IMG/VR virus record: IMGVR_UViG_2684623139_000002
Direction: 5' to 3' (one strand)
DNA from: an uncultured virus (IMG/VR IMGVR_UViG_2684623139_000002)
Lineage: Duplodnaviria > Heunggongvirae > Uroviricota > Caudoviricetes
DNA: 64,000 nt
Positions 2,348 to 49,099 of the stretch are shown here, piece after piece. The notes under the pieces are model-generated. The model was not told the DNA's origin and did not search any database. It worked only from the letters and a program-made list of their open reading frames with translations. Within the stretch, counting starts at the first letter, position 1. Every line of letters starts with the position of its first letter. The position numbers and the translations under genes were made by a program.

Positions 2348-2587
2348 TCAAACTCCTTGCTGTTGTTTGGCAACGGCCGCCCGGACCACTTTGCGGACTC
2401 GGGCAGCAGGGTTTGAATGAACGCGCTGTGGCGGCGAGAAGCCAAGGTCTTCTTGGTTCTCTCTGACGTCGTGGGGATTGGGTAGCGCGCGTAGCCGGAG
2501 CAGCACCTTCGCGAGGGTGGCTGCGACTTCGGTGAGTCGCGCCTCGGCGCTCATGCTGCTGGGATCGAGGGGGGTAAAGGCTTTCAT
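2348..2587 (-). CDS. Small hypothetical protein upstream of DUF2924
   Basis: 79-aa ORF abutting the DUF2924 start; contains one copy of the 31-bp motif. Confidence 0.55.
   Translation of the reverse strand: MKAFTPLDPSSMSAEARLTEVAATLAKVLLRLRALPNPHDVRENQEDLGFSPPQRVHSNPAARVRKVVRAAVAKQQQGV
2417..2447 (-). promoter_or_regulatory. 31-bp motif copy A (CCTTGGCTT-ctcgccgcc-ACAGCGCGTTCAT)
   Basis: Read directly on the minus strand, 69 nt upstream of the DUF2924 ATG. Confidence 0.7.
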
Positions 2588-3157
2588 GGATGGCAGTCCT
2601 TCATCACAAAATGACTGGATGAAAGTCTGCGGCCGGACAGGGCCGGCATGCCATCACAGAATCGGCAAGCGTTGATAACGATTGATAGCGATACGCCCCT
2701 GATCTGCAAAATCAGGGCTCCTTCCCCTAGGGGGCCGCGACGGATAACGGCTTCCAGACAACCACTCCTGCCGGAATGGCGACTTTGCCGCGTTCACATG
2801 AATAGATCAGCCCATTGATCACCACAGAATTAACTCCAGCCATCAGCAAAACAAAATAAACACCAGTAAGCCCAGATAATAAAAATACAAATCCAACCAC
2901 TTCCGATTTGAAAACAAAACTTCGCATCACACAAAAGCGCAAAATATCAATAAATCATCAAATAAATACTCCACATTATCTCAAGGAGTCACAGCAGACG
3001 CCCCAACACCCCCAGAAAATCCAGCAACCACCAAGGGTGCACGCTATTGGCTTGTTCGCGACATGAGCAATGAAGCGCGGCATGACTGACCGTCGGCTAA
3101 TTTCACTCAATGGATTTTGAGTAACGGCTCTGCGGAACTACGGCATATCCGTAGAAC

Positions 3158-3182
3158 TTCGTTCGGTCTCTGCCCGCTTCCA
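3158..3182 (+). promoter_or_regulatory. Imperfect hrpII/PIP box (TTCG-N16-TTCC)
   Basis: TTCGT at 3158 and TTCCA at 3178, upstream of the effector gene; no clean -10 box at the expected spacing. Confidence 0.4.
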
Positions 3183-3297
3183 GTCCAGGCCACCTCATAT
3201 TATTTTCGCCGCGCACCAATCCGGTGTCCGCTGGAATGCAAACCCATGCGCGATATTGCCTGGCCATTTGGCAACTAAAAAACGTTGATTCCAATTA

Positions 3298-5862
3298 ATG
3301 ACCTCAACGCATTGCCATCCAGAGCCGAAAGCAAAAATCGCTCTAGTAGATATCGAAGATCTATTCAGAAAGACCATGAGACCGTTACCGTCCGTCAGTA
3401 CCACCCGCACCGTCCCGAATACCTCCGCCGACGACTCGCAGCAACAGCCACCGCTTCCCGTGGGCAAGAACAGCCCGATTCCTCGGGCCGCATCAAGTGC
3501 GGCACGCCAGGGCCTTCCCAAAGCCCCCCTCAAAACGGGACCCGCTGGGCCGACCGAGAACCGCCAGCAGCTGGATCAAATGATCGCCAACAACCGGGAA
3601 CTGCCGCCAGGCACGGGGGCATTCCGCTTGTCTCCCCAACAACTGGGGTCCGCTGCCCGGATGGAAACGCAGGCTTACCACCAGCGCACCGCAACCGAAG
3701 CTCCGGTATTCTTCAGCGAATTCGCCACGGAGAAACCGGCCCTCTCGATGGTCCAGGATTTGCATCAAAGCAAACAGGACTATTACGCCGTGCGACACGT
3801 GGGCAAACGCGGCCGGGACTTGTTCACCGACGCGCCGATCGAGGGCAGCGACAGCAAGATCGGTCAACTGAAAACCAGCCCGCAGCTCAGTACCCAGAGT
3901 GCCGGGACCCGCGCCATCCGCGGCTTTGCCGCCACAGCCACCATTGACCAGGCGCGCGGCGAATACATCGCCAGGCTGCATCAGCATGTCGTTCAGATGC
4001 TGGGCGGCGAAGGCGGCGTCGTGCATCTGGTAAGACCGTCCCGTGACCCCTATGTGGAGGACAGCACGCTGAACTTCTTCACGTTCTGCGAGCAGGCCGA
4101 ATTGGCGAGCTCCCTGAATGCGCTGGAGGCGAAGGCTGCAAAGCAGGACAAACGCTCGCCGATTACGTTCACGGATAACAAGTCCCTGATCGGCCTGTCA
4201 CGGACATCGCGCACGGAAGCCAGTCCCATTGGCCGGCTGGTGCAGCAGCCCTTCTTTGTCACGTCGGAGCTTCGCGCCGGAGACAAGGTGGTGCTCGCCG
4301 ATGACCACATCCAGGCCGGAGGGTCCATCCTGGCCATGGAATCGGCGGCCCGGAGTGCGGGTGCCGATGTGCTGGCCTTCGCTACGCTGAGCACCCATCC
4401 GTTCTCACCGCAGCTAACCATGTCCTCGGAAGTCCGTGCTTTCCTGGACCAGACCCTGGCCACCTGGGATCCCGAACACCTCGTTTCCGATCGCTTGGCG
4501 GAATTGGGCATGCCACGCGACAGGCTGACCAACAGCGAAGCCATGATCCTGATCGCTTATGCGACCGACCCCGCCGATACATCCGCCGTGGAGAAGTTCC
4601 AGGCCATGCAGGCCAATTTCTTCGAGCGTGCCCACCTGCACAACGCCCGCATCAACCCCGATGCCCCCGACGCGGCCGCGCAGCTACGTCAACTGCAGGC
4701 GAGGCAAAACGCAGCAAACACGGAATCGGCCCGTGCGTTCATCGACAGTGCTCGCGTACTGGAGGGCGAGCATGATTCACTGAATCCGGTCCTGAACGAG
4801 AAGCCGAAATCCCCCCGTGAGATCGTGCAGGAACTCAACGAAGTGAGCCGCACGAGCCGCGCGTCCGTCGGCGCATCGGATGTCAAGCAAGTGGTGGTGC
4901 TGGATTGGGACGATTGCCTGCGCGACGAAAAGGGCCTGAACTACCAGCTCATGCACAACGCCCTGACGATCGCGGCCAGGGAGCACGCCGAGACGCTGCC
5001 CGAACTCAGCAGCGCGGTGTCGACCCTGCGCAGCCAGATGGAAAGCGGGCACCCCCCAGGTGAAGGGGCCCCACTGCTGATGAAGAACCGGGAAGACTTC
5101 ACCGGTCACCTGATGGCCAATCCGAGTATCTTCAAGCGCCACATCGTCGAAGACTTTGTCCGGACAATGTTGCCAGGTTTAGATCCTCAGAAGGCCAAGT
5201 CGACCGTCAACGCCGTATACACGCAGTTCACGAGGGGCTACAAACGGATGACACAGCCGCAAAAGGAAGCGCTCCGCGACGTGCCGTTCCCGAACGTGCG
5301 CTTCGAACTGATGCCGGGCGCGCAAGAATTGCTGGACAAATGCCGAACCGCCGATACTCGCGTGATTCTCATCAGCAACCGGGGCCATGCCGATCTGGAA
5401 GACGAGGTGAATCATCTCGGGATGATGCACTACTTTGACGCGGTCTCCGGTACCCCGATCATCATGCGACCCAAACCCGGCGCACAACAGGAAAAGATGC
5501 CGGAAACGCTGCAGGAAAGTTTGATCAAGGCGCTGCGAGGCGACGATGACGAAGCCTTGCGTCAAGTGCTTGGCGAGGCATCCACCTTTGCCCATCCGGA
5601 TACGACCGTCATTGATCGTGGCGATAAGAAACCCGGGGCCACCCGACTGCTGCAGAGCTTGGAGCATCTCTCGGTGCCACCCGATGTTCCTGTCACGTCT
5701 TATGGCGACCAAGCCTCCGACATCAAACAGTTGCAGACACTTGCCGAACAGAGGCGTCACGTCGATGGGGTCATCGTCAACCCTCAGCGTGGCGACGTAG
5801 GACAGCAGATTGACGTCGTCGGGATTCCGACACGGGTTGTCCGAAGCATGGAGGAACTGTAA
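3298..5862 (+). CDS. ripC2: Type III effector, XopC1/RipC family (phosphoribosyltransferase-like plus HAD-like domains); true start may be ATG 3376
   Basis: Ser/Pro/Gln-rich N-terminus, PRPP-binding loop VVLADDHIQAGGS, HAD motif I VVVLDWDDCL, LISN motif and YGDQASDI motif IV. Paralogue number is tentative. Confidence 0.7.
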   Translation: MTSTHCHPEPKAKIALVDIEDLFRKTMRPLPSVSTTRTVPNTSADDSQQQPPLPVGKNSPIPRAASSAARQGLPKAPLKTGPAGPTENRQQLDQMIANNRELPPGTGAFRLSPQQLGSAARMETQAYHQRTATEAPVFFSEFATEKPALSMVQDLHQSKQDYYAVRHVGKRGRDLFTDAPIEGSDSKIGQLKTSPQLSTQSAGTRAIRGFAATATIDQARGEYIARLHQHVVQMLGGEGGVVHLVRPSRDPYVEDSTLNFFTFCEQAELASSLNALEAKAAKQDKRSPITFTDNKSLIGLSRTSRTEASPIGRLVQQPFFVTSELRAGDKVVLADDHIQAGGSILAMESAARSAGADVLAFATLSTHPFSPQLTMSSEVRAFLDQTLATWDPEHLVSDRLAELGMPRDRLTNSEAMILIAYATDPADTSAVEKFQAMQANFFERAHLHNARINPDAPDAAAQLRQLQARQNAANTESARAFIDSARVLEGEHDSLNPVLNEKPKSPREIVQELNEVSRTSRASVGASDVKQVVVLDWDDCLRDEKGLNYQLMHNALTIAAREHAETLPELSSAVSTLRSQMESGHPPGEGAPLLMKNREDFTGHLMANPSIFKRHIVEDFVRTMLPGLDPQKAKSTVNAVYTQFTRGYKRMTQPQKEALRDVPFPNVRFELMPGAQELLDKCRTADTRVILISNRGHADLEDEVNHLGMMHYFDAVSGTPIIMRPKPGAQQEKMPETLQESLIKALRGDDDEALRQVLGEASTFAHPDTTVIDRGDKKPGATRLLQSLEHLSVPPDVPVTSYGDQASDIKQLQTLAEQRRHVDGVIVNPQRGDVGQQIDVVGIPTRVVRSMEEL

Positions 5863-5895
5863 AGGTTAGTCCGTTTAATGTTGCGGTAATCACCC

Positions 5896-5928
5896 ATCCT
5901 GCCCGGGATTGCAGATCGCGGGCAGGAT
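5896..5928. terminator. Hairpin between convergent genes
   Basis: ATCCTGCCCG...CGGGCAGGAT 10-bp perfect stem; no clear U-tract. Confidence 0.5.
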
Positions 5929-6078
5929 CAACGCGCTATCCAGCTTCCCGACTATTACTGAGTTGTGGCAAGTGGAAGATCTGACAAGCCGCCGCTGGCG
6001 AGCGACGAGCTCTTCTGATTCAATCTTGCCCGCGCGCTCACTCGCGGCCCATCAGCGAGCCGAAGTCACAAATTGCTG

Positions 6079-48631: not shown

Positions 48632-48663
48632 CTTTCGCTCCGTGGCGCTGTTGTGATGGCACC

Positions 48664-48694
48664 AGTAACGCGCTGTCGGCCACGCAAGCCAAGC
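48664..48694 (-). promoter_or_regulatory. 31-bp motif copy 5 (ACT variant)
   Basis: GCTTGGCTT-gcgtggccg-ACAGCGCGTTACT; 32 nt to ATG 48631. Confidence 0.75.
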
Positions 48695-48725
48695 TCAGTT
48701 TTTTGGCGTTGCGTTTGATCCAATC

Positions 48726-48756
48726 GCTTGGCTTCCCGGTCGAACAGCGCGTTCAT
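48726..48756 (+). promoter_or_regulatory. 31-bp motif copy 6
   Basis: GCTTGGCTT-cccggtcga-ACAGCGCGTTCAT; 38 nt to ATG 48795. Confidence 0.75.
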
Positions 48757-48794
48757 ACACGTGTCGCAACGACATCAACCAAGAGGACACGAAC

Positions 48795-48983
48795 ATGGAC
48801 ATCACCACCGCCAACTACAACGCTTTCGTCACCGAGCTCACCGCCCTCACTCGCAAGTACGGTGTCGCGCTCAGCGCCATCGGCGGCGTCTGCATCGCCG
48901 ATGAGCCCGGCGCCTTCCGCGATGTCGTCTACGTTGCCGATATCACCAGCGGCGACCTCTACCCCAAGACCCTCGACTCCTGA
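48795..48983 (+). CDS. Small hypothetical protein (62 aa)
   Basis: GAGGA RBS; ELTALTRKYGV...YVADITSGDL. Confidence 0.75.
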   Translation: MDITTANYNAFVTELTALTRKYGVALSAIGGVCIADEPGAFRDVVYVADITSGDLYPKTLDS

Positions 48984-49068
48984 TCGGTTACCGAGCGCGG
49001 TGCCGCCTGACGCCGGGCGGTACCGGCAGTCTGGAGCCTGGATCGCCTGTGCCACCGATTTACGAGCC

Positions 49069-49099
49069 GCTTGGCTTGCGCACCGAACAGCGCGTTACT
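49069..49099 (+). promoter_or_regulatory. 31-bp motif copy 7 (ACT variant)
   Basis: GCTTGGCTT-gcgcaccga-ACAGCGCGTTACT; 36 nt to ATG 49136. Confidence 0.75.

Follow-up and report, generated by a model that had tools for sequence, protein, structure and literature searches.

A widespread promoter-like element, apparently undescribed, heading integration and accessory genes in a family of serine-recombinase prophages

Background

In phage lambda, one activator-dependent promoter type (pRE, pI and paQ) serves the integrase as well as a transcript opposing the late operon, and its activator, CII, binds a TTGC direct repeat around -35. The present analysis concerns a 30-base bipartite signal, called the motif below, that occurs nine times in a 64,000-nucleotide (nt) prophage window from an uncultured Caudoviricetes record, IMGVR_UViG_2684623139_000002. 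The window means that whole stretch; the record to which it belongs is a 66.6-kb provirus (CheckV 100%). The motif heads the operon of a large serine recombinase, the gene of a DUF3489 protein and a set of small cassette genes.

Several other described systems resemble the motif. In the variable regions of T4-type phages, PeSL (promoter-stem-loop) cassettes place a repeated promoter head ahead of small non-essential genes, and shuffling occurs between the heads (PMC2839356). The ArdK regulon of plasmids R388 and pKM101 (PMC9723621) and the Reg576 regulon of p576 (PMC6294495) consist of scattered promoters with a common sequence that head entry genes. Morons, which by a definition quoted in PMC5567305 bring a sigma70 promoter and a terminator of their own into late operons, are like the motif-headed cassettes in being autonomous accessory units among packaging genes.

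Results

A pattern scan allowing up to three mismatches returned ten matches in the window, compared with a mean of 0.03 and a maximum of 1 in shuffled sequence, and nine of the ten were the copies listed in an earlier, sequence-only reading of this DNA (Table 1). The tenth match (30888, three mismatches) lies antisense within the tape-measure gene and is likely due to chance. The stretch from CTTGG to the last T was exact in eight copies, the copy at 46869 had two mismatches and the next best site in the window had four. No copies were found in the rest of the record (64001-66628). Eight of the nine copies head genes, and seven end 30 to 38 nt before an ATG with a ribosome-binding site (RBS), as had been claimed. 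Seven copies fill the interval from terS to the methylases, and all but one of these are directed against the late operon; the remaining two are found 3' of the lysozyme gene and at the head of the recombinase operon. Copies 5 and 8 have 87 nt in common at 87% identity, and the genes behind them are unrelated.

The motif is very probably a promoter, and is best read from its bases as one of the sigma70 family, with the -35 element TTGGCT, a 17-bp spacer, G at -14 and the -10 element GTTCAT or GTTACT. TTGGCT was present in 98-100% of the beta-type sites, with TTG or TGG in the alphaproteobacterial and Gram-positive forms described below. Position -7 was T in 99% of the beta-type sites. Position -11 was T rather than A in 99% of 292 beta-type sites and in 33 of 38 alphaproteobacterial sites; A-11 is the base that sigma70 normally uses to begin melting, and T there is poor for unaided sigma70. 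The claim that the two arms are always 9 nt apart was borne out in viral loci selected by protein, where 166 unique sites had a spacing of 9 and none had 6-8 or 10-12. The arms are near-invariant while the spacer and leader diverge, even between copies 30-45 kb apart. The most conserved bases are the sigma70 contact positions T-35, G-33, G-14 and T-7, and the block from -19 to -13 is more conserved than sigma70 reading would require.

In 86% of 530 sites, a pyrimidine-purine step (Y-1 R+1) follows the last T at a distance of exactly 7 nt, and a pyrimidine is at +2 in 93%. This step was not part of the search pattern and is an independent test of the promoter register. It was present in 56 of 84 non-redundant sites (background 26%, p 1e-14), in 18 of 33 alphaproteobacterial variants (background 21%, p 2e-5) and in eight of the nine window copies. 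Its position fits the YRY start element, which is centred 7 bp after the -10 element across bacteria (Kuo et al., PMC12641261). The strict spacing, the start step and the target specificity all back the proposal that the motif is a promoter with a non-canonical -10 element. A consensus promoter scan of 45000-50200 called none of the copies. Motif strings had no relevant row in the start-site tables of B. cenocepacia J2315 (12 files), B. japonicum USDA110 (11 files), C. metallidurans CH34 (part of the table) and C. difficile 630 (10 of 16 files), strains whose carriage of the element was not checked. No RNA data set was listed as covering 44000-50000, and the one small-share RNA run gave three short contigs, all away from the motif copies, which has no bearing either way.

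Other kinds of element were considered and set aside. Structured RNA or a single-stranded DNA hairpin is not indicated, as folds differ among the copies and the would-be pairing base at -2 is C in only 49%; no Rfam match above the gathering score was found at the copies. Conservation at the peptide level does not account for copies that are mostly intergenic and invariant at wobble positions, and a recombination site does not account for spacers that differ between copies. By-eye comparison with CIRCE, NrdR, sigma54, hrpII and E. coli-type SOS boxes gave no fit.

Exact-match scans found the motif in at least 178 stretches in viral contigs and at least 146 in species genomes. Among the matches listed, carriers were mostly Betaproteobacteria and Lysobacterales and also included Nitrospira, and phage AcaML1 has four copies in the same places. 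A sample independent of the motif was obtained by searching with the DUF3489 protein, which gave 79 viral loci (best 80 of 511 stretches). The 78 loci with enough upstream DNA comprised 57 unique regions, and all 57 contained the motif, 54 of them exactly. Counted by genes, the motif was upstream of DUF3489 in 61 of 61 and in 133 of 133 cassette-gene upstream regions (14/14, 7/7, 49/49, 13/13, 47/47 and 3/3, with overlap between two paralogous queries). It was upstream of none of the late genes (0/41 capsid, 0/54 portal, 0/52 terL, 0/62 terS), none of 98 methylase, 42 DUF6362 and 35 primase regions, and none of the other early-gene regions (38, 10, 29, 16 and 4). The earlier statement that no copy precedes structural or replication genes held in all such regions tested, and the hidden regulon proposed there is supported, with a target set of recombinase operon, DUF3489 and cassette genes and with late genes lacking the motif. 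Further targets include KleA-like and DUF932 genes, DUF499 defence operons in two cases and, in two short loci of other elements, an HTH_17 gene. In a Lysobacteraceae prophage, six small genes 3' of the tail genes, each headed by the motif, make up a second array (L491:3169-5934).

In a class sample of 351 genomes, the motif was found in 11, DUF3489 in 8 of 350, and both in 7 including the seed genome (p 6e-10 with the seed genome excluded). All seven genomes with at least three copies carry DUF3489. The other 340 had no copy at one mismatch, which indicates that there is no host regulon at that stringency. Among pairs of heads at least 90% identical, 49 lead different gene families and 259 the same family; the near-identical heads before different families, together with copies 5 and 8, fit cassette swapping.

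The expectation that matches would be confined to this prophage family and lie upstream of DUF2924 and DUF3489 was too narrow as to range: variants are carried by small alphaproteobacterial elements and by Gram-positive phages. In an alphaproteobacterial class sample, DUF3489 was present in 49 of 301 genomes (a tally that includes one unpublished genome, G045, used for no other result), and 40 of the 86 DUF3489 matches were fetched. Nineteen of the 40 loci were DUF3489-DUF2924-recombinase units with no capsid or portal match nearby; in such small units the recombinase operon begins with DUF3489. The variant C-T-(T/G)-G-A-Y-W-W-N9-A-N-N-R-AGC-R-T-N-N-A-T was found at 28 of the 40 loci on the coding strand up to 1.3 kb upstream; the opposite strand gave 0, and shuffled sequence 0.36. 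De novo expectation-maximisation on the alphaproteobacterial upstream regions recovered codon periodicity and a different leader motif, and not the motif itself. Another leader motif, conserved and rich in hairpins, precedes DUF3489 in 25-28 of the 40 loci (L329-L344, L437-L476) and is a candidate structured RNA; an Rfam scan of 12 loci gave no match. Loci such as L453 and L688 contain DUF5681-like, ParB-methylase, DUF3489, DUF2924 and recombinase genes without a capsid gene, and L453 also contains a gene judged by eye to be terminase-like. These small elements are possible undescribed phage satellites.

In five Gram-positive phages picked from 306 methylase matches, 14 sites were found where 0.9 were expected. 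Twelve of the 14 were before RBS-bearing starts between the methylase and terL or directly before a serine recombinase gene, the latter in Javan105 and Gva_AB1. The Gram-positive form occurred in at least 153 stretches, with the fixed spacing in 166 cases and another in 1, and with 7 downstream recombinases. Among its left arms are CTTGATAA, CTGGATAA and CTGGACTT, which recall the alphaproteobacterial form. The promoter reading is less clean here, as the A/T-rich -10 can be placed in a register of either 17 or 18 bp and two positions share the start step. An Atlas search with the main Gram-positive cassette protein matched only 'virulence' clusters without Pfam domains.

An element-encoded regulator of the motif probably exists, to judge from the conserved bases. 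The sequence-only reading had suggested several factors, and DUF3489 is the one that was kept: it was modelled with two winged helix-turn-helix domains (predicted local distance difference test, pLDDT, 78.7; a single-sequence fold with pLDDT 41 was not used), and its gene is under a copy of its own. No sequence relative of DUF3489 was found in the PDB, no Foldseek match reached an E-value of 0.001 or better, and the fold matches listed were winged helices with no ArdK, KorA or ribbon-helix-helix proteins among them. That DUF3489 is the regulator is, overall, plausible rather than probable; that it is an activator is tentative, and is favoured by a -10 element without A-11 and the lack of a repeat operator. 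A phage-encoded sigma factor, also suggested, is not supported, as sigma region 2 (Sigma70_r2, PF04542) was found neither in the record (0/1) nor in five relatives (0/5).

The palindrome GAAC-N5-GTTC had been reported in copies 2, 3 and 6 as a possible overlapping operator. The numbering holds when only the seven array copies are counted (45938, 46553 and 48726). The operator is not supported: the palindrome was present in 329 of 638 sites, its halves were weakly associated (p 0.014, for related sites that are not independent), and the compensatory T..A pair was found in only 4 of 115. The motif contains no conserved direct or inverted repeat.

Table 1. Motif copies and genes of the window. 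Distance is measured from the end of the copy to the start of the gene behind it.
Feature	Position	Strand	Predicted +1	Distance (nt)	Remarks
Large serine recombinase, 459 aa	474..1853	-			Pfam Resolvase, Recombinase, Zn ribbon
DUF2924 protein, 165 aa	1850..2347	-			Pfam PF11149, E 6.5e-37
Motif copy 1	2417..2447	-	2410	69	Heads DUF2924-serine recombinase operon; inside small open reading frame (ORF) 2348-2587
98-aa conserved protein	15918..16214	-			Behind copy 2; family of 12; no Pfam or PHROG match
Motif copy 2	16245..16275	-	16238	30	Directly 3' of lysozyme gene
Motif copy 3	45555..45585	+	45592	36	Back to back with terS (44994-45530, -)
88-aa cassette gene	45622..45888	+			No family match
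Motif copy 4	45938..45968	+	45975	35
DUF3489	46004..46498	+			Two winged-helix domains; candidate regulator
Motif copy 5	46553..46583	+	46590	38
63-aa cassette gene	46622..46813	+
Motif copy 6	46869..46899	+			Degenerate, 2 mismatches; no cassette gene or RBS-bearing ORF behind
122-aa gene	48263..48631	-			phrog_8020; paralogue of 49136
Motif copy 7	48664..48694	-	48657	32	ACT type; inverted
Motif copy 8	48726..48756	+	48763	38
62-aa cassette gene	48795..48983	+
Motif copy 9	49069..49099	+	49106	36	ACT type
126-aa gene	49136..49516	+			phrog_8020
Two ParB-N6/N4 methylases	51520..54194	-			Bound the cassette array; motif not upstream
DUF6362 helix-turn-helix (HTH)	54604..55011	-			Not favoured as the motif's regulator

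The provirus contains lambda-like terminase, portal and capsid genes, two ParB-methylases, DUF6362 and a D5-type primase, besides effector-like cargo and the operon of DUF2924 and the large serine recombinase. By name, the closest relatives of its DUF3489 come from the Ralstonia solanacearum complex. The R. solanacearum CFBP2957 entry 'plasmid pm01' (NZ_CP115954.1), a 65.4-kb circle, shares the gene order, contains 8 copies and looks like the excised form of a member of this prophage family. A CI-type repressor was neither seen in the window nor found among the annotations of this complete circular relative. The leader of the HTH_17 early operon (~60907-61050, -) is conserved in the circle (~25700-25870); unlike the motif, it has a hairpin and a direct repeat of TCTGAG. 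An Atlas search with protein 49136 gave no match.

DUF6362 is, from its position, likely a late regulator. Between it and the methylases, the stretch 54400-54439 (-) resembles lambda cosQ-17-cosN; if it is cos-like, the methylases and cassette array would sit at the left end of virion DNA. A 37-nt inverted repeat (84%) at 55324-55427, directly 3' of the primase gene, may be an origin or terminator.

Effector-like cargo includes a XopC-family gene (3298-5862, above the cut-off), a YopJ-like gene (32783-34249), a weakly XopE-like ORF (47110-48027) in a lower-GC insert behind copy 6, and an ORF without an assigned family (18293-18859). hrpII-like boxes were seen at 3158 (one mismatch), 32635, 47021 (one mismatch) and 18170. 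A 184-nt direct repeat (93%, 32368-35026) flanks the YopJ-like and H-NS genes and suggests that this block was inserted by duplication of the DUF6441 end. A Phd-PIN toxin-antitoxin pair is located at 31684-32345. A type VI effector-immunity-like block of VgrG, phospholipase D and Sel1/DUF6396 genes (7969-14310, -) separates the lysis genes from the recombinase. A C4 antisense RNA (Rfam RF01695, 48.8 bits; 15293-15383, +), the only Rfam match in the window, adjoins a truncated-looking XRE HTH gene (14780-15145). At 62010-64000 and L001:4448-6628 there are two IS3-type transposase regions, followed by a ParB plus AAA-ATPase gene similar to defence ATPases.

Discussion

On balance, we prefer to read the motif as a family-specific promoter used by the host sigma70 holoenzyme with an element-encoded helper. 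Host sigma70 would read the -35 (C)TTGGCT, the fixed 17-bp spacer, G-14 and the -10 GTTCAT or GTTACT, and would start 7 nt after the last T; the lack of a sigma region 2 and of motif copies in most host genomes makes it the likely reader. The helper is suggested by a -10 without A-11 and by the conservation of -19 to -13 beyond sigma70 readout. One control would cover the integration operon (DUF2924 and the large serine recombinase) and the small genes between the methylases and the terminase, together with the gene 3' of the lysin and occasional defence cargo, and would leave the lytic operons apart, giving an establishment or lysogeny regulon. In Proteobacteria, DUF3489 under its own copy may act as an activator with positive feedback, and the repeated heads could double as homology joints for cassette swaps. 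Transcription, its timing, and the binding and sign of DUF3489 are what we infer in this model.

A number of results weigh against this model. The co-occurrence of motif and DUF3489 is expected from linkage alone, and four genomes have the motif only, with no more than two copies each, of the kind that heads the recombinase operon; the ones examined proved to be remnants or to lie on short contigs. The best fold match of DUF3489 (Z 8.7, root-mean-square deviation 1.9, 63 aligned residues) is a generic winged-helix match. Of the 49 mosaic head pairs, 25 are a single family pair. Twelve of the 40 alphaproteobacterial loci fell under the score cut-off of a matrix for which 10 hits in these very loci had served as the seed, and some copies beside DUF3489 there have A at -11 (GAANNT) and would need no activator. 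DUF3489 was absent from the five Gram-positive phages (0/5), and profile comparison with the Gram-positive cassette families gave no link (best probability 15%), so DUF3489 cannot be the universal factor.

A rather unlikely alternative, in our view, is a weak constitutive sigma70 promoter of the moron kind with no dedicated regulator. Its uniformity would result from duplication and recombination of cassette heads, in the manner of PeSL, and its low strength would suit an integrase and potentially toxic small genes. The element crosses phyla and no candidate regulator does, the best-conserved bases are the sigma70 contacts, the DUF499 operons headed in two cases would be expected to be on in lysogens, and mosaic heads occur. 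GC-rich hairpins lie just 5' of three of the four internal array copies that were folded; terminator calls were at chance level, 4 compared with 4.2. Set against this are the T at -11, poor for unaided sigma70, and the contrast between near-invariant arms and diverging spacers and leaders. It is also unlikely, though there is precedent (PMC6294495, PMC9723621), that the promoter works unaided on entry and is then repressed by DUF3489 through negative autoregulation, giving zygotic induction; ArdK and Reg576 act in this way on the establishment genes of plasmids. DUF3489 is under its own copy in every gene counted, just as Reg576 controls its own gene (PMC6294495), if DUF3489 is a regulator at all, and KleA-like, DUF932 and integrase genes are among the targets. 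However, ArdK and Reg576 use direct- or inverted-repeat operators, of which the motif has none that is conserved, and its -10 is not close to consensus.

Two other readers of the motif were weighed. Many promoters of extracytoplasmic function (ECF) sigma factors have a -10 that starts with GT and lacks A-11, as the motif does, and the geometry TTGGCTT-N16-GTTCAT resembles sigma-E spacing; one Gram-positive member also encodes a protein with PHROG sigma-factor matches. Recognition by a host ECF-type or phage sigma is nevertheless improbable, given that no Sigma70_r2 match was found in a complete record or in five relatives, the 340 of 351 host genomes without a copy, a -35 with the TTG core of sigma70 rather than the AAC of ECF promoters, and hosts from several phyla. 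Activation by the late-type HTH protein DUF6362, which the sequence-only reading had named as a possible activator, or binding of a LexA-like dimer to GAAC-N5-GTTC, is very improbable. DUF6362 is a conserved HTH protein in most proteobacterial members, and the palindrome is in three of the nine window copies; but AcaML1 has four copies and no DUF6362, the small alphaproteobacterial elements gave no DUF6362 match, the motif was never found before late genes or DUF6362 itself, and the palindrome, uncompensated where it occurs, is absent from most alphaproteobacterial and all Gram-positive forms seen.

The motif is a real and widespread promoter-like element that heads an integration-plus-accessory regulon and is apparently undescribed. 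As the sequence-only reading had supposed, no description was found in the literature searched, which covered Ralstonia prophage promoters, repeated phage promoters, AcaML1 and Heliusvirales/m46.1, with most subscription journals outside the search. The available parts of PMC5567305, PMC9658991 and PMC11283538 contain no description of it, the string ACAGCGCGTTCAT was in no paper found, and other motif strings matched only unrelated papers. The available parts of the papers found on DUF3489 give a fold prediction only, and those found on DUF2924 are Wolbachia papers only. A broader proposal, which we regard as doubtful, is that the motif represents an old and undescribed promoter class of serine-recombinase temperate phages and small integrative elements in Proteobacteria, Nitrospira, Firmicutes and Actinobacteria. 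Its sigma70 -10, impaired at the melting base, would be rescued by an element-encoded factor (DUF3489 in Proteobacteria) reading -19 to -13, and integration and accessory genes would form a self-reinforcing lysogeny switch also used by satellite-like elements.

The motif points to how integrase and accessory genes may be expressed in a prophage family that is very common, has hardly been studied and brings effector-like cargo to the Ralstonia solanacearum complex. It provides exact predicted start sites and a role for DUF3489 that can be tested, and it can be used to annotate small genes missed by gene callers and to spot related small elements. If activation is true, a sigma70 promoter that lacks A-11 would be opened in a new way, and the motif would possibly offer an inducible system for work on large serine recombinases.

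The motif differs from the systems closest to it. The PeSL promoters are strong, sigma70-like early promoters of lytic myoviruses (PMC2839356), whereas the motif has a non-consensus -10, heads the integrase as well and is carried by temperate phages and small integrative elements. ArdK and Reg576 promoters have repeat operators and are repressed; the motif has no repeat and a -10 without A-11, its candidate regulator is a tandem winged helix, and its carriers are prophages. The promoters of morons are unrelated to one another, whereas the motif-headed cassettes share one promoter, together with the recombinase operon. The lambda CII promoters differ in their TTGC repeat, which the motif lacks; no CII-like gene was found, and the targets of the motif are many small cassettes.

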